The notes under the pieces are model-generated. The model was not told where the DNA came from. It ran no database searches and saw only the letters and a program-made list of their open reading frames with translations. This document shows, one piece after another, positions 17,654-32,392 of a DNA stretch of 64,000 nt (position 1 is the stretch's first letter; every line of letters starts with the position of its first letter). The position numbers and the translations under genes were made by a program. Source of the stretch: Alphaproteobacteria bacterium (GTDB lineage Bacteria > Pseudomonadota > Alphaproteobacteria > Bin95); assembly GCA_963665325.3 (NCBI GenBank), contig OZ224045.1, forward strand, positions 1,664,001 to 1,728,000, written 5' to 3'.

Positions 17654-18046
17654 TGCGGCGGCGTAAGAATGTGCCATGGGCTTGGCGGTAGCTTGTCCCC
17701 ATAGTCCATGGGAGGGCCCCGCGCGCGGGGCGGCGCGCCCTCCACCTGGCTGGCGTCGGCCCGCGCGTGGGAGGGACCTGTGGTCTATGGGGGCAAGCGG
17801 GTTATTCGGAGGGGGCCCTCGTCGCGACCGGCTCTGCTTGAGCCTGCAGCTTTCGCCGTTCATCTCCAGGATGTGGAAATGGTGGGTGATACGGTCGAGC
17901 AGCGCGCCGGTGAGGCGCTCGCTGGCGAAGAGCGAGGTCCGTTCCTGGAAGGGCAGGTTCGAGGTGACGATGGTGGCGCTGTTTTCGTAGCGGCGGCTGA
18001 AGATGTCGAACAGCAGCTCGCTTCCGGTCTGCGAGAGGGGCACGTA
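17654..18046 (-). mobile_element. istB: IS21-family remnant: istB 3' part plus one subterminal repeat
   Basis: GYVPLSQTGSELLFDIFSRRYE..IVTSNLPF..LTGALLDRITHH..MNGES.RL is the IstB C-terminus; Walker A is absent. Repeat TGGCACATTCTTACGCCGCCGCA at 17676-17654. Confidence 0.85.
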
Positions 18047-18208
18047 GCCCTTCTCGTAAAACGGCATGGTTGCCTTCTCCTTGCGGCACCGGCGGTCCGC
18101 GCGACCTGGTTCGCGAACCCGGCTTCATTCCAAGGCCCATGCGCTTGCAGCGCGAGGAGGCGCGCATATGCTTGGCCGGATCCCCGAACGCCAGGAGCCC
18201 GGACCCCC

Positions 18209-19327
18209 ATGACCGTCCCGGACACCGAAGAGTTGCTCGACGGCATCAACCGCTGGGTCGCCATCGAGAGCAAGACGGACGACCGCGACGGCATCGCCCG
18301 GATGATGGCGGTGGCGGAGGCGGATTTCCGCGTGGCCGGGCTGGTCACGGAGACGATCCCCGGCCGTGCCGGCTTCGGGGATCTCTTGGCGGCGCGCGCA
18401 CCCTGGGGCGGCGACGGGCAGGGCATCCTGGTGCTCTGCCATCTCGACACGGTCCACCCGGCCGGGACGCTGGCCGCCAACCCGTTGCGCACCGAGGGCG
18501 ACCGGGCCTACGGACCCGGCATCTACGACATGAAGGGCGGCGTGTGGATCGCGCTGTCTGCGATCCGCTCCCTCGCCGAAGCGGGAGAGAAGACGCCGCT
18601 GCCGGTCCGCTTCCTGGTGGTGTCCGAAGAAGAGGTCGGCTCTCCCACTTCGCAACCCCACATCGTTGCGGCGGCGGAGCGGGCGAAATACGTGCTGGTG
18701 ACGGAGCCCGCACGCGACGGCGGATGCTGCGTGACCGGCCGCAAGGGCGCGGCGCGGATGAAGATTGCGGCGCGCGGAAAGCCCGCCCATTCCGGCGTGT
18801 CGCACCGGGACGGAGAAAGCGCGGTGCTGGAGATCGCCCGGCAGATCGTCGATCTGGAGGCGATGACGGATTACGAGACCGGCGTGACCGTCAATGTCGG
18901 CCTGCTCTCCGGCGGCACGGGCGTCAATGTCGTGCCGGAATACTGCACGGCGGAGCTGGATATCCGCATGACCCGGCCGGAGGACGGCGCGGCCGCGGTG
19001 GCGAGGGTGCAGGGGATCAAGCCCTACAACCCCGCGGTCGAGCTGACCGTCAGCGGGGGGATGAACCGGCCCCCTTACCGGAAATCGAACGCCATCGCCT
19101 CGCTCTACGAACATGCGCGCGAACTGGCCTCCGAGATCGGCTTCGAGCTGGGCGAGACCTTCACCGGCGGCGGCAGCGACGGCAATTTCACCGCGCCGGT
19201 CGCGCCGACTCTGGACGGTCTTGGGGTAGACGGGGCCGGCGCGCACACGCTGGAGGAGCATCTCTACGTCTCCTCGCTGGTTCCCCGCACGATGCTGCTG
19301 AGGCGGCTCTTCCAGACATTGAGCTAG
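18209..19327 (+). CDS. M20-family metallopeptidase (carboxypeptidase G2-like)
   Basis: HLDTV, GPGIYDMKGG, SEEEVGS, EP, GGGSDGNF, GAHTLEE metal-binding motifs. Confidence 0.92.
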   Translation: MTVPDTEELLDGINRWVAIESKTDDRDGIARMMAVAEADFRVAGLVTETIPGRAGFGDLLAARAPWGGDGQGILVLCHLDTVHPAGTLAANPLRTEGDRAYGPGIYDMKGGVWIALSAIRSLAEAGEKTPLPVRFLVVSEEEVGSPTSQPHIVAAAERAKYVLVTEPARDGGCCVTGRKGAARMKIAARGKPAHSGVSHRDGESAVLEIARQIVDLEAMTDYETGVTVNVGLLSGGTGVNVVPEYCTAELDIRMTRPEDGAAAVARVQGIKPYNPAVELTVSGGMNRPPYRKSNAIASLYEHARELASEIGFELGETFTGGGSDGNFTAPVAPTLDGLGVDGAGAHTLEEHLYVSSLVPRTMLLRRLFQTLS

Positions 19328-20374
19328 AGCGTGATGATTTCATACGGAAGCGTATCCGGCGTTTTGGATGTAGTTGGCACATTCTTGGGGTGAGAAGCGG
19401 TCGAGGAGGGTGCCGATACGCTGCCATGTGGTTTCGGTGGTTCGTTCGGCGGCGTCTCGCAACAGATGTTTGAGTTTGGCGAAGACCTGCTCGATCGGGT
19501 TCAGGTCGGGACTGTATGGCGGCAGGAACAGCAAGTGGGCGCCGGCATTTCGGATGGCCTTTCTGACGGTTGCGTTTTTGTGGCTGGCAAGATTGTCCAT
19601 AACGACCACATCGCTTGGGGTCAGCGTGGGGACGAGGAAGTGTTCGACATAGGTTTGGAAGGCCTTGGCGTTGACCGGTCCGTCGAGGACGCAAGGCGCG
19701 TCGATCCGGTCGACGCGCAGTGCGGCAATGAAGGTCATGGTGCGCCAGTGGCCGTGCGGCGCGCGCCCGATCAGGCGTTTGCCCTTCGGCGCCCAGCCGC
19801 GCAGCGGAGCCATGTTGGTTTTGGCCCAGGTCTCGTCGATGAAGACCAGCCGGCGCGGATCAACCCGTTTCTGGTGGCGCTTCCAGCGCGTCCGTCGGCG
19901 CGCGACGTCCGGGCGGCATTGCTCGCTGGCCAGCGCGGTTTTTTTTGAACGAGTAGCCCGCCCGATGCACCGCCGACCAGACCGTGCGGTAATCCACCCG
20001 GAGGCCGCGCGCGGCCAACTCGCTCACCAGACCACGCAGGGTGAACGGGGTTTCGATCCGCTCCAGAAGCCAGTCCTCATACGCCCCGACGATCTTGCGC
20101 GGACGCCGCCCGCCGATCTTCGCCGGCGCGCAACTGCCGGTCGCCCGCAGACGCTGCGACCACTTCACGATACTCGACGGCGCCACAGCGAGCGCCGACG
20201 CCACCTGACGGACGCTCTGTCCCTCGGCCAACCGGACCATCGCACGTTCGCGCAAGTCCATCGAAATTGCACGGCTCATCGACCAAGCCTCCCCTGTCGC
20301 AAAAACAACAGTGAATCAGCTCAAGCCTGAAACTGGAATCCCCTTGCGATTCTCAATTAAATCATCACGCTCTA
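19325..20374 (-). mobile_element. IS630-family insertion sequence, apparently complete
   Basis: Perfect 16-bp inverted ends TAGAGCGTGATGATTT (19325-19340 and 20359-20374, counting the duplicated TA); CTAG at both junctions. Confidence 0.93.
19340..20279 (-). CDS. IS630 transposase split into two frames at an A8 run (19946-19939)
   Basis: HTH part MSRAISMDLRER..FKK. The shifted frame gives RLVFIDETW..MDNLASHK..LPPYSPDLNPIEQVF (DDE). Confidence 0.88.
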
Positions 20375-20579
20375 GTATCCCGGAATCGCAGTGCGTTGCA
20401 CTGCAAAACAGCCGTCCGGGCGCCTCCATCCTGTCATGCTGTCTAACGTCAGCGCCTGTGGGACAGGCTGAGGAATTTTCATAAGGGAGGATTTCTGGCT
20501 CATCGCAGTGACCGAAGGGAACGAAGATGAGACTCCCGGCCGTTGCGGCCGCCGCTACTATTGGGCGGCGGGGCGGCCC

Positions 20580-20881
20580 GGTTCGAAGAGGTACGTCAGC
20601 CGGTCGAATTTGCCCGCTTGCGCATGAACCGGCCTGCTGCGAATACCCCGGCCAGGATGACGAAGCCGGCGGCGTTCGAGGACGCGGAGAATCGTATTCG
20701 GGAGAGCGTGAACGCGCTGGGCTACGAGGTACTGGGGCCTGGATCGAGCACCTTGACGACGGGGCTCTGCGGGTCGAACGGGCCGGGCAGCGGCGGTTCC
20801 GTGTGGCGGCCCCCGCCTTCGCGAGGGCAGGCTTTGCCGAAGACGATCATGAGCACACTCGGCCCGGTGACCTACAGGCGG
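20580..20881 (+). pseudogene. Degenerate transposase 5' fragment, possibly ISKra4/ISLre2-like
   Basis: Joined across frameshifts: FEDAENRIRESVNALGYEVLG/AWIEHLDDGALRVERAGQRRFRV/PKTIMSTLGPVTYRR. Family assignment is by eye and weak. Confidence 0.4.
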
Positions 20882-21135
20882 GGGATATCCGCGGGCCAGT
20901 GGTCGGAAGAGTGCTGGATCATTTGGGCATTGAGACGGCCTGCCGCGAGGCAGCGAATGCCTCCGGATCGGAGTCCGGGGCCGGGCGCGGGACGGCGGCG
21001 GCGATGGAGGAGACGGGCGCCGGCCGTGCGGCGCGCGGTTTCAACGCCGGTCGGCGCCGCTAGCTGTCGAACCTGCCTGACTTCGAGGGTGAAAGACCGT
21101 CCGCTCGACAACAGGCGGATCGGTCCTGCCTGCCG

Positions 21136-22308
21136 TTATCGTCTCAATGTCATGCCTTCTGTCGCCTCTCCCGCCATGACCCGCGCCATCGCGGCCCCAA
21201 CCCGCTCCGCTGCCTTTTCAATGTCGCGATCCGCGAGATGGGCGTAACGCAGCGTCATCTGCACGTTGGAGTGCCCGAGCAGGCGGGAGACGACCGGCAC
21301 CGGCACGCCGTTCATCACGGCATGGCTTGCCATCGTGTGACGCAGGTCGTGAAGGCGGACGTCCTCGATTCCGGCCTCGCGGCGCACGCGATACCACAGT
21401 TTGAGATCGTGGCAGCGCGGCCGGGCGGGGTCGTGCGGCGAGGGAAACACGAACGGGCCGGCCCTGCGCGGCTGCCGGTCGAGGATCGCGCGGGCGCCGC
21501 TGCCGATCGGCACCGTCCTCGGCCCCGTCTTGCTGTCCTTGAGGGCCAGCATGCCGTCGTGAACCTCGGACCAGCGCAGGCCCATGATCTCGCCTTTGCG
21601 GCAGCCGGTGAGCAGCAGCAGGCGGACGATGTCGGCCTGCTGCCGGTCGCCGTTGCGGGTCTGCGCGTCGAGGACCCGGTGGAGACGGGTGAGTTCCTCC
21701 GTGGACAGGAAGCGCGTGAGCTTCCGCTGCCGGTTGAACGCGATGCCTTCGGCGGGATTGCGTTCGATATGGCCGCAGGCGGCGGCGAAGTTCAGGATCT
21801 GCCGCAGGCGCTCAAGGATATGATTGGCATTGCCAGGGGCCGTGCGGCTGTGTCGCTCGAACCAGCGCCGGATGCCTGCATCGTTTATGCGGTCCAGCGG
21901 TTTCTCCCCGAAGATCGGCAGAAGATGGCCCGCCATCTGATAACGGACCGTCCGCTGCGTCGAAGGCTTGTAGGCGTCGAAATGCGCTTCCTTCCACGGA
22001 CCGGCGACGAAGTCCCGAAACAGCGGGGCCGCAGGCGCCGCCGCCTTCCCCTCAAGTTCCGGGCTCGCCCGGCGGACGTGGCATTCCCGGCGGGCTTTTT
22101 CCAGGCTCTTCACGCCGACCGGACCGAGCGAGACGCGTTTCGTGCGCCTGCCCGCGTCCAGCAACAGCACATAGCTGCGCCCGCCGGAGGGACGGACCCG
22201 AATGCCGAGGCCGGAAGCGCGGCTGTCCCAGACGGTGTATTCGCGCTCGCGGGGACGGAGGCGGACGATGGCCGCGTCGGTCAGTTTCATCCTCTCCCTC
22301 GCCGGCAT
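21136..22308 (-). CDS. Tyrosine recombinase/integrase with N-terminal arm-binding domain
   Basis: WDSRASGLGIRVRPSGGRSY arm domain. Catalytic TGCR, DSKTG, HDLRH, LGH, TLRY. Confidence 0.93.
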   Translation of the reverse strand: MPARERMKLTDAAIVRLRPREREYTVWDSRASGLGIRVRPSGGRSYVLLLDAGRRTKRVSLGPVGVKSLEKARRECHVRRASPELEGKAAAPAAPLFRDFVAGPWKEAHFDAYKPSTQRTVRYQMAGHLLPIFGEKPLDRINDAGIRRWFERHSRTAPGNANHILERLRQILNFAAACGHIERNPAEGIAFNRQRKLTRFLSTEELTRLHRVLDAQTRNGDRQQADIVRLLLLTGCRKGEIMGLRWSEVHDGMLALKDSKTGPRTVPIGSGARAILDRQPRRAGPFVFPSPHDPARPRCHDLKLWYRVRREAGIEDVRLHDLRHTMASHAVMNGVPVPVVSRLLGHSNVQMTLRYAHLADRDIEKAAERVGAAMARVMAGEATEGMTLRR

Positions 22309-22311
22309 GGG

Positions 22312-23433
22312 TCAGCCCTCGAGAGCGGCGCCGACCGTCTCGGCGGCGTCGCGTACCATGGCGTCGGCAAGGTGGATGTATTTCAGGGTCGTCTCCGGCT
22401 TGCGGTGACCGAGCAGCCGGCCGATCGCCAGCACGGTCTCGCCCTGCCTGAGGGCCAGACTGGCCACGGTGTGGCGCAGGTCGTGCAGATGTGCGTCTCC
22501 GAGGTCCGCCTCGGCGCGGACCCTGAACCAGAAATGATCCAGCCAGTCGATGCTCCGGTGCCGGTCGCCCCGCAAGGACGGGAACACCCAGCGCCCGTTT
22601 CTCCCGATGCCGTCGAGAACGCCGCGCGCCGGTCCGGACAACCAGACGGTTCTCGGACCGGTCTTGCTGTCGCGGAGATGTAAATGACCGTCCCGGTAGT
22701 CGGACCATTGCAGGGTCAGTATCTCGCTCTTGCGGCATCCGGTGAGCAAAAGCAGGCGGATGAGCGCGACCTGCCCGGGCCATCGGGCTTCGTGCGCGGC
22801 GAGCCTGGCGGACAGGCGGCGGATTTCATCGTCGGACAGGAACCGTTCGCGGCCCTTGCGGCGGTAGCGCCTGATGCCCCGGCAGGGATTGGAGCCTTCC
22901 GGGCGCAGACCCATCCGCTCCGCTTCTCTCATGATGACGGACAGCACCGGCATGGACCGGTCGGCGGCGGCGGGCGTGGCCCGCAGGCGGGCGAACCAGT
23001 TCCGCACCTCCTGCCGGTTGATGTCGGCAATCGGACGCCTGGCGAAATGCGGCAGGATCTGGTTGTGCAGATAGCCGCGATTGACTGCGAGCGTTCCCGG
23101 CTTCCAGACCCCCTCGTGACGCCGGAACGCGGCTTCGGCGACGGCCCCGAACGGCATCTCGCCGGGCGGGGCAGGTTCGTCCTCGCCGCGCCGGATGGCG
23201 ATGAGCATCTCGCCTGCCAGAAACCGCGCCTCGGACACGCTCAGGCTGCCGGCGTTGCCGACGATCTTCCAGACGCGCTCTCCATGATGCTGGCACTGGA
23301 TGAAGAACTGCTTGCGGCCCGAGGGCGACACGCGGACGCCAAAGCCTCTCAGCTTGCCGTCGCGGATGTCGCGGACCGTCTTGCGGGGTTTGAGCGCCCT
23401 GACGCGGGCGTCGGTAAGGGTGGCTCTGGGCAA
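22312..23433 (-). CDS. Second, paralogous tyrosine recombinase with arm-binding domain
   Basis: RDGKLRGFGVRVSPSGRKQF; TGCR, DSKTG, HDLRH, LGH, TLKY. TTG start after GGGAGAAG; 3 bp from the next gene. Confidence 0.92.
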   Translation of the reverse strand: MPRATLTDARVRALKPRKTVRDIRDGKLRGFGVRVSPSGRKQFFIQCQHHGERVWKIVGNAGSLSVSEARFLAGEMLIAIRRGEDEPAPPGEMPFGAVAEAAFRRHEGVWKPGTLAVNRGYLHNQILPHFARRPIADINRQEVRNWFARLRATPAAADRSMPVLSVIMREAERMGLRPEGSNPCRGIRRYRRKGRERFLSDDEIRRLSARLAAHEARWPGQVALIRLLLLTGCRKSEILTLQWSDYRDGHLHLRDSKTGPRTVWLSGPARGVLDGIGRNGRWVFPSLRGDRHRSIDWLDHFWFRVRAEADLGDAHLHDLRHTVASLALRQGETVLAIGRLLGHRKPETTLKYIHLADAMVRDAAETVGAALEG

Positions 23434-23534
23434 ATGACTTCTCCCGGCTCCGGTTGCAGTCGGGGAACAGGCACTTGCGAACCCGTGTCCCGACCGCTAC
23501 ATTTCGGGAGAAAAAACGACGCTATATCCGATAG

Positions 23535-26500
23535 TTAGCACCCACCGGTGCGTGTGACGGTGTGGGCGGTCGTGGTTGCAGTGCTGTCGGGAACGTCGGT
23601 CCAGTCGCCGTAACCGCCCGTGGTCTTGTAGCTGTATTGCCAGCTGGTGATGGTGCTGTTGCCGGGGTCGGTCCAGCTCAGCGAGACCTGCCCGTCGCCC
23701 GCGGTCGCGGCGAAGCCTGTCGGCTTGGCCGGCACGGCGAGCGGGGTTGCGGTTTTCTCGTCGGATGCCGCACCGTTTCCGCTGACGTTTACGGCGCGGA
23801 CCTTGAAGGTGTGAGCGGTGCCGTTGGTGAGCCCGGTGACGATGTGGGCGGTCGTGGTTGCAGTGCTGTCGGGAACGTCGGTCCAGTCACCGTAACCGCC
23901 CGTGGTCTTGTAGCTGTATTGCCAGCCGGAGATGGTGCTGTTGCCGGGGTCGGTCCAGCTCAGCGAGACCTGTCCGTCGCCCGCTGCGGCGGCGAAGCCC
24001 GTGGGCTTGGCCGGTACGGCGAGCGGGGTTGCGGTTTTCTCGTCGGATGCCGCACCGTTTCCGCTGACGTTTACGGCGCGGACCTTGAAGGTGTGGGCGG
24101 TTCCGTTGGTGAGCCCGGTGACGATGTGGGCGGTCGTGGTTGCAGTGCTGTCGGGAACGTCGGTCCAGTCGCCATAGCCGCCCGTGGTCTTGTAGCTGTA
24201 TTGCCAGCCGGCGATGGTCGCGTTCGACGGGTCGTCCCATGCCAAGACAACCAGTGCCTCTCCGGGCGTCGCCGTGAAACCGGCCGGTTTGGCCGGAGGG
24301 GGCAATATCGGCGTCACCGTCACCTCGTCCGATGCCTCGCTGTTGCCTCCGCCGTTTACAGCGCGAATCGTGAGCGTATGGGCGACGCCGTTGGTGAGCC
24401 CGGTGACGGGATAACCGGTTGTCGTTGCGGTGCTGTCGGGAATGTCGGCCCAGTCGCCATAGCCGCCTGTTGTTTTGTAGGCGTATTGCCATTTGGAAAT
24501 GGTTGCGTTCGACGGATCGTCCCATGTCAACGCCGCCCGGCCATCGCCCGCTGTCGCCGAAAGGCCCGTAGGCTTGGCCGGAGGCGGCGGCTGTGGCGTC
24601 GCGGTCCGCTCGTCCGATTCGTAGCCATTGGTGCCGTTAACCGCACGAATCTTGAAAACATAAGTCGTGCCGTTATCGAGGCTCATTACAGCGTATCGGG
24701 CGGTCTTCGCGCCGCTGCCGGGAATGCTCCTCCAATGGTCCATATAATCGCTGCCCGGCGTCTTGTAGTTGTATTGCCAGTCCTCGATGCTGGCATCGTC
24801 TGGGTCGTTCCATGTCAGCACGACTTGGCCGTTGCCGGCCTCGGCCCCGAAGCCCGTTGGCTTGGCCGGAGCCGCAAATTGAGGCGTAGCGAACGCCTCG
24901 TCGGACTGCAGCCCGGCGCCGCTTCCGTTGACTGCGTGAATCCTGAAAGTATAGGCCGTGCCGTTGGTCAGGCCGGTTACGGTGTAGCGGACCGTCGTGG
25001 CGCCGCTACCGGGGATGTCCGTCCAGGCGCCGTAATCCCCGGTCGTCTTCAGGCTGTATTGCCAGCCGGCGATGCTGCTGTTGCCGGGGTCGGTCCAGAG
25101 CAGCCTTGCCTGCGTGTTGCCTGCTACGATCCGGAAGCCGGCAGGCTTCGCCGGGACCGGTATGGGTGTGGCGGCGACGCCTTCGGACTCCGCTCCATCG
25201 CCGCTGCCGTTGACAGCCCTGATCCTGAATACATGCTCCACTTCGTTCGTGAGGCCCGTAACGGTATGTTCCGTGGTTTGGGCGCCGCTGCCGGAAATAT
25301 CGATCCAGTCGCCATAGTCGCCTGCGGTTTTCCAAGAATACTGCCACCCGGCGATCGAGGCGTTCATCGGGTCGTTCCATTCGAGGACGACCTGCGCATC
25401 CCTCGCGGTGACGGCAAAGCCCGCCGGCTTCGCCGGAACCGAAAGCGGCGTCGCGGAAGCCTCGTCGGACTCCGGGCCGTCGCCGACATCGTTCACCGCC
25501 CGTATCCTGATCGTATAGGTCGTTCCGTTGATTAGGCTACCGACCGTATGGCTGGTGGTAGTTGCGCCGCTGCCGGGAATATCGGTCCAATCTCCGTAAT
25601 CTCCGGAGGTCTTGTAGGTGTATTGCCACTTCAGGATCGAGGCGTCGGAAGGGTCCGTCCACGACAGGGTAATCTGTCCATCGCCCGTCAGCACGGCGAG
25701 GCCCGTCGGCTTGTCCGGAGTCCTTGCCGTCGGAGTAGTCGAAACTTCATCAGATTCCGCGCCACCGCCGACATTGTTGACGGCGCGAATCTTGAATGTG
25801 TAAAGGGTGTCGTTTGCAAGCGTGGAAACGACATGGCGCACCGTGGTCGCGCCGCTTTCCGCGATGTCGGTCCAGTCGCCGTAACCGGCTGTCGTCTTGT
25901 AGGCGTATTGCCATTTTTCGATCGTATCGTCGTCCGGGTTGTCCCAGGTCAGCGTGGCCTTGCGGTTCCCGGGCTCGACCGAGAATCCTGTCGGTTTTTC
26001 GGGAGCAGAAACCATCGGTATGGTCGATACTTCATCTGAAATAGGGCTGAATCCAAAGGAATTATATGATCTTACCTGAAACGTGTATTCGGTGCTGTTT
26101 TCGAGACTGTCGACGATATGGGTTGTCGTGTAGGCACTGGAACCTGGTATGGGGTCCCAGCTTCCGTATGAGCCACCCGATTCTTTCTGTCTGTAGTCCC
26201 AGATCTGTATGCTGATATAATCTGCCTCGTCCCATGTCAGAGTAGCTGTTCCGTTGCCGGGGGCGACTTGCAACCCTGTCGGTTTGTTCGGAGAAAAGCC
26301 GTAAGATTCGCCAGTTTTCTCTGAAGATTGAATGCCATTACCGGTATCATTAACCGCTCGAATCGCCAAATCATAGAACTTGTTATTTGCGAGTCCGGTA
26401 ACGGTATGGCGTCTTGTGTTCGGACCACTCCCTTCCATATCCATCCATTCACCGTAGGAGATGTCCGTATTCAGTTTGTATCTATATTGCCACTTGGTAA

Positions 26501-26738
26501 TCGTCGCATCGTCCGGGCCCGTCCAACGCAAGCCGATCTCCTTGTAGCCATCGACTACCGTGAATCCAGTCGGCTTCGCCGGGGCCGTCTGCGCGCCGAC
26601 TCCGCCTGGCATGACCACCGCGGCGCAGGCCAGCAGGGCCGCTACAGAAGCGCACCGCCAGCACTGCGAAATCGCGGCCAGGCGCGGCAATCCGAGGCCG
26701 CCCGGCGTCGAAAACAAAAGCTGCCCCCCTCTCTGCAC
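23535..26738 (-). CDS. Secreted fibronectin type III repeat protein (10 full and 1 partial FN3), C-terminally truncated
   Basis: Signal peptide ending ..GVGA-QT. Eleven PxKPxG..W..WQY.YK..W.DIP..GLTNG..F.IRAVN units. The last unit breaks off at HTVT-RTGGC*. Confidence 0.88.
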   Translation of the reverse strand: MQRGGQLLFSTPGGLGLPRLAAISQCWRCASVAALLACAAVVMPGGVGAQTAPAKPTGFTVVDGYKEIGLRWTGPDDATITKWQYRYKLNTDISYGEWMDMEGSGPNTRRHTVTGLANNKFYDLAIRAVNDTGNGIQSSEKTGESYGFSPNKPTGLQVAPGNGTATLTWDEADYISIQIWDYRQKESGGSYGSWDPIPGSSAYTTTHIVDSLENSTEYTFQVRSYNSFGFSPISDEVSTIPMVSAPEKPTGFSVEPGNRKATLTWDNPDDDTIEKWQYAYKTTAGYGDWTDIAESGATTVRHVVSTLANDTLYTFKIRAVNNVGGGAESDEVSTTPTARTPDKPTGLAVLTGDGQITLSWTDPSDASILKWQYTYKTSGDYGDWTDIPGSGATTTSHTVGSLINGTTYTIRIRAVNDVGDGPESDEASATPLSVPAKPAGFAVTARDAQVVLEWNDPMNASIAGWQYSWKTAGDYGDWIDISGSGAQTTEHTVTGLTNEVEHVFRIRAVNGSGDGAESEGVAATPIPVPAKPAGFRIVAGNTQARLLWTDPGNSSIAGWQYSLKTTGDYGAWTDIPGSGATTVRYTVTGLTNGTAYTFRIHAVNGSGAGLQSDEAFATPQFAAPAKPTGFGAEAGNGQVVLTWNDPDDASIEDWQYNYKTPGSDYMDHWRSIPGSGAKTARYAVMSLDNGTTYVFKIRAVNGTNGYESDERTATPQPPPPAKPTGLSATAGDGRAALTWDDPSNATISKWQYAYKTTGGYGDWADIPDSTATTTGYPVTGLTNGVAHTLTIRAVNGGGNSEASDEVTVTPILPPPAKPAGFTATPGEALVVLAWDDPSNATIAGWQYSYKTTGGYGDWTDVPDSTATTTAHIVTGLTNGTAHTFKVRAVNVSGNGAASDEKTATPLAVPAKPTGFAAAAGDGQVSLSWTDPGNSTISGWQYSYKTTGGYGDWTDVPDSTATTTAHIVTGLTNGTAHTFKVRAVNVSGNGAASDEKTATPLAVPAKPTGFAATAGDGQVSLSWTDPGNSTITSWQYSYKTTGGYGDWTDVPDSTATTTAHTVTRTGGC
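23555..24210. repeat. Near-identical 282-bp tandem repeat (about 2.3 copies) encoding FN3 units 9-11
   Basis: TGTGGGCGGTCGTGGTTGCAGTGCTGTCGGGAACGTCGGTCCAGTC recurs at 23561, 23843 and 24125. Confidence 0.9.
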
Positions 26739-31069: not shown

Positions 31070-32392
31070 TCAGCCGCGATCGACCAGCTTCTGCGCCTGC
31101 TCGGCGGCCGCGTCGAGCGCTTCCTTGGGATCGGCACCGTTGCTGACCGCATCCGAGATGGCGTTGGCCAGAACCTGCATGACCTCCGGCCAGACGGCCA
31201 GTTGCGGGAAGATCCGCGAACTCTCGAGGCTGCCCGCAGCGGCCATCTGCAGCCCTTGGTTCGCCGCGTTGACCTCCTCGTCCATCATGTTCTTCTTGTG
31301 CAGCGCGACGATGACGTTGCGCTTTTCCTTCTCGATGACGTTGCGCTTCTCCAGATCCGGGTTGCTGACCCATTTCAGGAACTCCCAGGCGGCTTCCTGC
31401 TTGCTGGAGTTGACGTTAATCGCTGTCGGCATCGACATCGCGAACGTCGTCGACTTGTCGCCTTTGAACGCAGGCAAAGGTGCGAAACCCACCTGCTCCG
31501 GCGTGAGCTTGGTGTTCTTGCCAAGGATGCGGGAGCCGTAATGCCACCACCAGCCCATGAAGAACGCGCTCTGCCCGGCACCCATGGACAGCGAGCCGTC
31601 ATACTGCTCGAAGGACTTGGCGCCTTCGGAGTTCACCTGCAGGTCGTTCTCCAGCGCGACATAGTATTTGAGCGCCTCGACCGCTTCCGGCGAGTTGAAG
31701 GTCACCTTGCCGTCCTTGAACAGGTCGCCGCCGTTGCTCCACAGTATGTTCATCCACACCGCGACGTTCTGGGCGGCCTTCGGCGAGTAGTACATGCCGA
31801 TGCCGATGCCTTCCTTGTCCTTGATGACCTTCGCCACCTCGGCGAGTTCATCCCATGTCTTCGGCACCGGAAGCCCGTGCTTCTCCAGCAAATCCTTGCG
31901 GTAGAACATGAGCTGGGCATGGCCGCGCAGCGGCAGGCCGTAGATCATGCCGTCATAGGTGACCCCGAGCTGGTGTGCGGGGTAGTAGCGGTCGAGCGTG
32001 ACCTCGTCCGCCCCCATCATCTCGTCGATGGGCGCGAACAGATCCTTCAGCCCCGGCCCCCAGTCGTCCTTGTAGTTGATGAGGTCTGGGTCGGCATCGC
32101 CCGCGACCTTGATCGCGAGGATCTTCTCCAGAAGGTTGCGGAAGGGAATGAATTCGAACTCGACCTCTATCCCGGTCAGGTCGGTGAACTCCTGGACCCT
32201 CGCTTCGTGGCCTTCGTATTGGCCGGCCACCGGGGCGAGATAGGTCAGCTTTGTCCCGGCATAGGGCTTGCCCGGCTTGAGGCCATAGGGCAGCGCGTCA
32301 GCGGCGTTCGCAAGGGTCACGCCGCAGACCAGTCCGGCCGCAACCGCGCCGGTCACAAGTGTGCCGATCAGCGTCCTTCGAGTTGTCTGCAT
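31070..32392 (-). CDS. Carbohydrate-type ABC substrate-binding protein
   Basis: TRRTL signal peptide; IYGLP..MFYRKDLL..PKTWDEL; EAAWEFLKW. GGAGG RBS. Confidence 0.9.
   Translation of the reverse strand: MQTTRRTLIGTLVTGAVAAGLVCGVTLANAADALPYGLKPGKPYAGTKLTYLAPVAGQYEGHEARVQEFTDLTGIEVEFEFIPFRNLLEKILAIKVAGDADPDLINYKDDWGPGLKDLFAPIDEMMGADEVTLDRYYPAHQLGVTYDGMIYGLPLRGHAQLMFYRKDLLEKHGLPVPKTWDELAEVAKVIKDKEGIGIGMYYSPKAAQNVAVWMNILWSNGGDLFKDGKVTFNSPEAVEALKYYVALENDLQVNSEGAKSFEQYDGSLSMGAGQSAFFMGWWWHYGSRILGKNTKLTPEQVGFAPLPAFKGDKSTTFAMSMPTAINVNSSKQEAAWEFLKWVSNPDLEKRNVIEKEKRNVIVALHKKNMMDEEVNAANQGLQMAAAGSLESSRIFPQLAVWPEVMQVLANAISDAVSNGADPKEALDAAAEQAQKLVDRG

Follow-up and report, generated by a model that had tools for sequence, protein, structure and literature searches.

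The closest published precedent for the elements described here is a group of mobilisable elements of Prevotella intermedia, MTnPi1, MTnPi2 and MTnPi3. According to the accessible parts of the reports, these have tandem tyrosine integrases, several copies per genome and low insertion specificity, and their circles have been shown (PMC4755523; PMC5704250). Their attachment (att) site, TTAC-N5-AA (TTAC/TTGC), comprises four fixed bases and five variable bases (N5) (PMC4755523; PMC5704250). An MTnPi1 copy without the second integrase showed no excision, and both genes were suggested to be necessary (PMC4755523). The present subject is a comparable pair of integrase genes, intA and intB, in a stretch of 64,000 nucleotides from an Alphaproteobacteria bacterium (contig OZ224045.1, positions 1,664,001 to 1,728,000), hereafter the window. 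The pair is probably a module at the left end of integrative elements of 7-72 kb, islands of which many are mobilisable, that integrate as circles by a homology-guided exchange tolerant of mismatches. The ends of these elements carry ACACC followed by N5, and the family is named after this motif below.

XerCD acts as a mixed complex of two recombinases, uses a dif site and has no arm domain. The other related systems are summarised from the available portions of the cited papers. IntSXT/P4-type integrases with a DUF4102 arm are single enzymes that use conserved gene targets such as tRNA genes and prfC (PMC8138268). The overlap of CTnDOT combines bases that are fixed, on one side, with five variable "coupling" bases for which no homology is required, and heteroduplex intermediates are reported for both Tn916 and CTnDOT (PMC2817482; PMC5812530). 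SE, GInt and Tn554 elements need extra genes (tfp/srap, ginC/D and tnpC, respectively), and the spacer footprints of SEs are one-sided, with a preference for attR (PMC10214605; PMC3414803). Specificity of the phage mv4 integrase is set by the identity of a 7-bp overlap and is reprogrammable (bioRxiv 10.1101/2023.11.06.565760). RIT elements comprise three overlapping recombinase genes within about 3.5 kb and terminal inverted repeats (PMC3414803). Why some mobile elements should require two or even three tyrosine recombinases has been asked for RITs (PMC3414803) and for MTnPi (PMC4755523).

Ends, insertion sites and distribution of the family

In the window, intA (22312-23433, minus strand, TTG start) encodes an arm-type tyrosine integrase of 373 aa, and intB (21136-22308, minus strand) encodes a paralogous arm-type integrase of 390 aa. 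The genes are 3 bp apart and their products are 39% identical across 379 aa. Both proteins have the Pfam domains Arm-DNA-bind_3 (PF13356, presumably the former DUF4102), Phage_int_M and Phage_integrase, all above cut-off. The complete catalytic set is aligned in IntA (R234 K257 H317 R320 H343 Y352) and in IntB (R237 K260 H320 R323 H346 Y355). An earlier note, made from the letters of the window, had described these tandem paralogues with their arm domains and catalytic residues, and had set them apart from RIT and XerCD. All of this holds, as there are two genes in large elements and the XerC and XerD models score far below cut-off.

The genome contains 17 tandem integrase pairs (tblastn), of which 11 belong to the family and 6 form a separate clade without its end motif. 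Family copies have a sharp common end 117-130 nt upstream of intA and nothing in common past intB. This left end reads host-ACACC-N5-(0-4 nt)-GCACC-loop-GGTGC-TAA, and all 15 genome matches of the palindrome motif lie directly upstream of an intA copy. ACACC, with at most one mismatch, is present at 68 of 72 left ends and is followed by 47 different N5. The palindrome stems of these 68 ends are GCACC/GGTGC (62), GCATC/GATGC (5) and mixed (1).

At the other side, the split host sequences restart 11-72 kb downstream, after a second ACACC-N5, and the reading frame of host genes is regained; the open reading frames (ORFs) concerned are presumably isochorismatase-like, catalase-like and DUF3179-like. 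A search for shared segments in the 60 kb downstream failed to give right ends because these are short and divergent. Profiles identify 13 right ends in the window genome, and 38 in five relatives, versus 57 left ends. Pairing of left and right ends on the same contig and strand gives 37 rows, and with four left out as nested or ambiguous, 33 pairs remain. They span 8.2-72.3 kb, and their N5 are identical in 25, differ by one mismatch in 6 and by two in 2. Eight own-genome pairs were located through the repeat itself and are circular evidence; the unbiased set consists of the 24 pairs of the relatives G005, G011, G013 and G016. In these, found blind to N5, 17 are identical, 5 have one mismatch and 2 have two, while an identical N5 would arise by chance in about 0.2% of pairs.

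The repeat is 10 bp long: the base before it and the bases after it are not conserved, and there is no second motif on the host side past N5. The fifth base of the motif changes in step at both ends (ACACA, ACACG), which suggests that the overlap begins inside the pentamer. Insertions lie in many unrelated genes and repeats, with unrelated flanks. The sequences show that an integrated copy is bounded by the direct repeat ACACC-N5 and that the empty site has a single 10-mer.

Around 100 nt inside the right ends (14 aligned), CTTG and TA columns are invariant and spaced like an outward sigma-70 promoter, which in a circle would face intA-intB. The consensus scan, applied to one element, did not call this putative promoter. 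One sub-lineage (G000:C1:777142-817135; G016:C1:117035, 3949830) inserts in short repeated host elements with the same N5 (TCTCG) in four genomes. At several loci of G005, the same site is hit repeatedly in copies of IS-like host repeats, with N5 GCGCC four times and ACGGC four times. The repeated N5 of G317 are not independent, since their flanks are the same repeat. The second family of tandem arm-type pairs (G000:C1:615383-620006, C3:6897-9247, C3:1061891-1064269, C4:37549-39933, C5:271-2621) is the separate clade without the ACACC/palindrome end, and one of its pairs lies inside a first-family intA gene, beside conjugation genes.

Family matches occur in 15 of 16 congeneric genomes. G005 has 22 left ends, and one genome of another family has 11. 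The exact left-end motif occurs in 2 of 401 genomes of the class, a count that is too low because distant members have other palindromes. In metagenomes, 19 of 118 motif matches precede an IntA-like gene, giving 19 loci. A phage search returned one match, at 32%, and no RNA dataset was listed with the element.

Plasmids extend the range further. IntA relatives below 60% identity are found in 30 plasmid records, and the adjacent pair is present in all nine records opened. In a prospective test, these plasmid pairs (34-42% identity) all have ACACC 147-280 nt upstream of intA (9/9), and the exact 10-mer recurs downstream in six. These six elements are from Shewanella oneidensis MR-1 (11.0 kb; megaplasmid NC_004349.1, repeats at 32329 and 43331), Shewanella baltica BA175 (6.8 kb, the smallest seen anywhere), Aurantiacibacter (52.8 kb), Polymorphobacter (47.9 kb), Novosphingobium (10.3 kb) and Sphingorhabdus (11.9 kb). 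The MR-1 pair is SO_RS22330 and SO_RS22335. The two Shewanella elements have both ends in common and different cargo. All five other S. baltica plasmids opened have the empty site with a single copy of the 10-mer. In this empty site (L380-L384), the target is followed by a palindrome with an 8-bp stem and has ATGGTTGTTTGT in common with the element's own left end, so that the target may be a relic left end.

Shewanella and Vibrio genes fall in the IntA and IntB clades (support 0.997 each), while the two sphingomonad second genes tested fall outside the IntB clade. Gene order and tight coupling of the pair are kept from Alpha- to Gammaproteobacteria. In 6 of 10 members, a perfect stem of at least 4 bp starts just inside the left end; its sequence is unrelated from member to member, and the frequency compares with a background of about 7% and with 4 of 37 host-side controls.

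No gene other than the two integrase genes is common to all elements, and the cargo is varied. A TrwC-type relaxase is present in 7 of 14 elements examined and absent from four small elements and from the window interval, and some elements contain nested conjugation genes. The elements have their own integrases and att ends, which is one of the features that define an integrative mobilisable element (IME). Annotated cargo on plasmids of cultured Proteobacteria includes restriction-modification, anti-phage, toxin-antitoxin and surface genes. The plasmid member of Novosphingobium sp. P6W (L385:19855-30204, 10.3 kb) has annotated DRT3 antiviral reverse transcriptases and a HEPN/nucleotidyltransferase gene. 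Two weak DddA-like matches in small ORFs are below cut-off and were treated as noise.

Proposed integration model and alternative explanations

The mismatched pairs indicate where the bases of each junction come from. Empty alleles were read for seven of the eight: the left junction has the host N5 in three and the right junction in three, and one is ambiguous. In the left-host cases, 10, 7 and 9 alleles were read, of which 8, 7 and 6 have the host N5 and none has the other. In the right-host cases, the host N5 is found in 7 of 7 alleles, 3 of 3 alleles and 3 exact paralogues among 13, and the left N5 in none. One foreign N5, GAGCA, is also carried by a sister element whose right end is near-identical. 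The element thus brings its own ACACC-N5 to the target.

In the proposed model, the two ends of an element would be joined in a circle, with the junction sequence right end-ACACC-N5-left-end palindrome; for the MR-1 element, the predicted junction is right end-ACACCCCACG-left end. The host site read by the integrases would be ACAC(C), and a conserved second half-site would be lacking. Both strands would be exchanged across a 6-7 bp overlap that covers N5, at predicted cut positions. A matching N5 would be strongly preferred, and one or two mismatches would be tolerated. The heteroduplex would then segregate at replication and leave donor bases at either junction. Such a two-strand exchange over a heteroduplex overlap, followed by replication, would explain the foreign N5 on either side. 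The target of each lineage would be partly written in the N5 it carries and would drift over time. It is probable that both integrases are required, whether they form a XerCD-like mixed complex on unlike half-sites or have split roles.

The conservation of the two genes points the same way. First genes (IntA) and second genes (IntB) form separate clades in the tree, with 36-43% identity within pairs. The six catalytic residues are retained in 46 of 46 first genes and in 45 of 46 second genes, the exception being truncated. Median dN/dS values of 0.22 and 0.26 indicate purifying selection on both genes, and the att sites are asymmetric, with one conserved host half-site only. Joint action of IntA and IntB is likely. 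Co-conservation supports a joint function, and the hetero-oligomer proposed in the earlier note is a possible form of it. A stronger version, offered tentatively and with more doubt than belief, is that IntA and IntB are an obligate mixed, arm-dependent recombinase with one host half-site of 4-5 bp, the other specificity coming from five circle-borne bases beside a structure-conserved palindrome. They would then represent a pan-proteobacterial class between site-specific integration and transposition. If so, an alteration of these five bases would direct cargo of up to 70 kb to a 10-mer of choice, and mismatch tolerance would let the target drift from lineage to lineage.

Several observations weigh against the integration model or against joint action. 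Three of the nine plasmid pairs have no exact repeat (one whole plasmid searched, and 20 kb only in two). Neither the circle junction nor the empty-site joint is among the joints listed for contigs of four runs aligned with an intact element, and contigs drop rare forms. The ambiguous mismatched site seems to have lost one base, and later point mutation or gene conversion could blur the N5 patterns. The distances of IntA and IntB correlate over 41 pairs, but the Mantel value (r 0.93) is inflated by kinship and overstates co-evolution. In the set examined, 14 of 106 integrase ORFs have no tandem partner. Finally, the 60-kb interval next to the window copy contains a peptidase gene, and 13 of 16 relatives have orthologues of it at 89-95%.

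The same elements and ends could also be served by integrases with separate jobs, one integrating and the other excising in place of an excisionase or resolving dimers, with no mixed complex. This is rather unlikely, although it would suit the result that none of 33 small ORFs close to the ends of three small elements belongs to an excisionase family. Stand-alone enzymes should each have an arm domain and all catalytic residues, as both proteins do, and only 15 columns are fixed differently between the two clades. Asymmetric att sites, in contrast, suit two specificities within one synapse, and the gene order and tight coupling kept from Alpha- to Gammaproteobacteria also count against separate jobs.

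A strand-biased copy-out mechanism, as in SE elements or Tn554, appears improbable. It would circularise one strand, keep a copy in the donor and leave the previous target as a footprint at a fixed end. It would fit the many copies per genome (the 22 left ends of G005) and the left-end position of both tyrosine recombinases, which SEs share (PMC10214605, accessible part); the short palindrome present in 6 of 10 distant members might also fold when the DNA is single-stranded. However, the SE donor spacer prefers attR, whereas the foreign bases here are found on either side in a small sample (right 3, left 3, 1 ambiguous), and no tfp- or srap-like genes occur between or past the integrases. Still less probable is a target-site duplication made at insertion, for which any ACACC would suffice. 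The 47 different N5 in 68 left ends and the 25 identical pairs of 33 agree with it, but six sites with empty alleles have non-host bases at one junction, and one of these has the N5 of a sister element. Plain target duplication is therefore ruled out for such sites, and the core has no DDE enzyme.

The reading of the earlier note, an IS-like element of 2.7 kb (20882-23555) without cargo, has almost nothing left in its favour and is refuted for the window copy. Its end at 23554 is sharp, and nothing recognisable follows intB in this copy. The proposed boundary at 20882 fails, as similarity among copies ends with intB (around 21170), and the common end is the opposite one (23552-23563). None of the 39 delimited elements (33 pairs and 6 on plasmids) is smaller than 6.8 kb. 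The proposed end motifs are not conserved either: ATATCCG has 837 genome occurrences, with its 23524 copy inside the conserved word ACTATC[T/G]GA and no partner at 20885, and the 12-bp inverted pair, present at 20926/21140 in the window, recurs downstream of intB in none of the 13 other elements checked. What survives is a mobile two-integrase system with many copies (11 pairs in the genome), one sharp shared end and varied flanks, in which the pair is a left-end module. The note had named occurrence of the pair only at the edge of larger prophages or integrative and conjugative elements (ICEs) as evidence against its reading. In substance this is what is found, with islands or IMEs in place of prophages or classical ICEs.

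The window copy and its surroundings

The window copy retains the full left end on the minus strand. Its junction core, identified in the left-end survey, is ACACC with the N5 GTCAC (ACACCGTCAC, 23554-23563) and runs on into an FN3-repeat surface protein gene, which confirms that this gene is cut mid-repeat as the earlier note had placed it (about 23555). On the element side, genome motif matches and stem counts define the GCACC-loop(3-5)-GGTGC-TAA palindrome (23535-23551). The conserved leader that follows (23434-23534) comprises ACTATC(T/G)GA and the inverted pair TTCTCCCG/CGGGAGAA, which are candidate arm-type sites. In 5 of 13 elements, an inverted copy of the ACTATCTGA word of this leader lies about 45 nt inside the right end.

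The 5' half of the FN3 gene occupies 23564-26738 (minus strand). In six relatives the gene is unsplit, as one ORF of 2036-2794 aa that spans both halves. The 3' half is on the same strand 60.2 kb away, beyond the window (G000:C1, from 1627332 downward), and the genes beyond it match the window genome in five of the six relatives. Its start adjoins an IS21-like end and lies about 145 bp or more beyond the expected point, without target duplication. The adjoining IS21-like element (G000:C1:1627330-1634270) is itself split by a 4.4-kb transposon with more than 20 identical copies.

The whole 60 kb was considered as cargo and this was withdrawn, given the core-like peptidase gene inside and the IS21-like copy without target duplication at its end. 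Because of the peptidase gene the interval is not simply cargo, and the size of the original element is therefore blurred by later rearrangement. The right end of the window copy was not found by an exact-repeat search within 300 kb, right-end profiles, a generic pattern within 120 kb or the FN3 continuation. The copy has lost its right end, and what is left is a stranded left end in which both genes are intact. It is thus probably immobile, and could still act in trans.

Past intB, the DNA at 20377-21135 is non-coding, repeat-containing and decayed, has no conserved end and is not an element end; 20976-21082 is 86% like the post-intB DNA of one sister copy (L003). The segment 20543-20881, called a transposase fragment in the earlier note, has no Pfam hit, and stretches within it are 81-97% like DNA elsewhere in the genome, which makes it a decayed repeat, its identity unproven. 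An IS630 copy (19321-20376, minus strand), with five other copies at 98%, is a separate insertion. An istB fragment at 17654-18067 is about 95% like other IS21-type copies and is fused to the peptidase ORF. A family member in another genome (G005:C2:637109) is inserted in the orthologue of the window peptidase gene (18045-19300), which lies 2 kb from the pair.

Comparison with described systems

The ACACC-N5 islands are a real and widespread variant of tandem-integrase integrative elements, apparently not previously described. The literature searched, which leaves most subscription papers outside its coverage, does not describe elements that combine paired integrases of the DUF4102-arm type with ACACC-N5 ends, and the accessible parts of PMC5587801, PMC5357655, PMC9229058, PMC12824646 and PMC8547460 have nothing on the family. 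To this extent the earlier note's view of an undescribed system stands, but it missed the tandem tyrosine-integrase IMEs of Prevotella (PMC4755523). The family is a two-gene case with exactly mapped ends and natural mismatch records. An intact-looking 11-kb member is on the MR-1 megaplasmid, and the family is therefore testable at once. In some uncultured Alphaproteobacteria, host genes are broken at 11-22 sites per genome, and tools that expect a single integrase and a tRNA site would miss these elements.

The comparisons that follow refer to the published systems as described in the available text of the papers cited above. IntSXT/P4-type elements have the same domain set (both proteins are above cut-off), an integrase at the island edge and direct-repeat ends. 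In contrast, the ACACC-N5 family has an obligate-looking pair and scattered sites in arbitrary genes and repeats. CTnDOT resembles it in the variable-base overlap, and both CTnDOT and Tn916 in their heteroduplex intermediates. These two have one integrase (IntDOT or Tn916 Int) with excisionases, and their overlap needs no homology, whereas in the ACACC-N5 family N5 matches in 17 of 24 blind pairs. Near-identity of the overlap as a rule is common to the mv4 integrase, which differs as a single enzyme with two 7-bp core sites, one natural tRNA target and strict identity.

SE, GInt and Tn554 elements likewise carry cargo, encode at least two tyrosine recombinases at their left end and have spacer footprints. 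The intA-tfp-intB-srap (ginA-D) operon of SEs and GInts is absent here; intA and intB are adjacent, and no third gene is common to all. RITs also encode several active tyrosine recombinases together, but three genes and about 3.5 kb are RIT features. XerCD differs in that IntA and IntB have arm domains, and the NCBIfam XerC/XerD scores are far below cut-off. The MTnPi1-3 elements remain the nearest, as they share tandem tyrosine integrases, multiple copies and a short degenerate att site with N5. They are from Bacteroidetes, and their integrases are described as having "no significant homology" to each other, while those of the window family are 36-43% identical. Their att site has a second fixed half-site, AA, while the ACACC-N5 family has none and a different motif. 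The family is kept apart from this closest precedent by the att site described for it and by the homology within its pairs.

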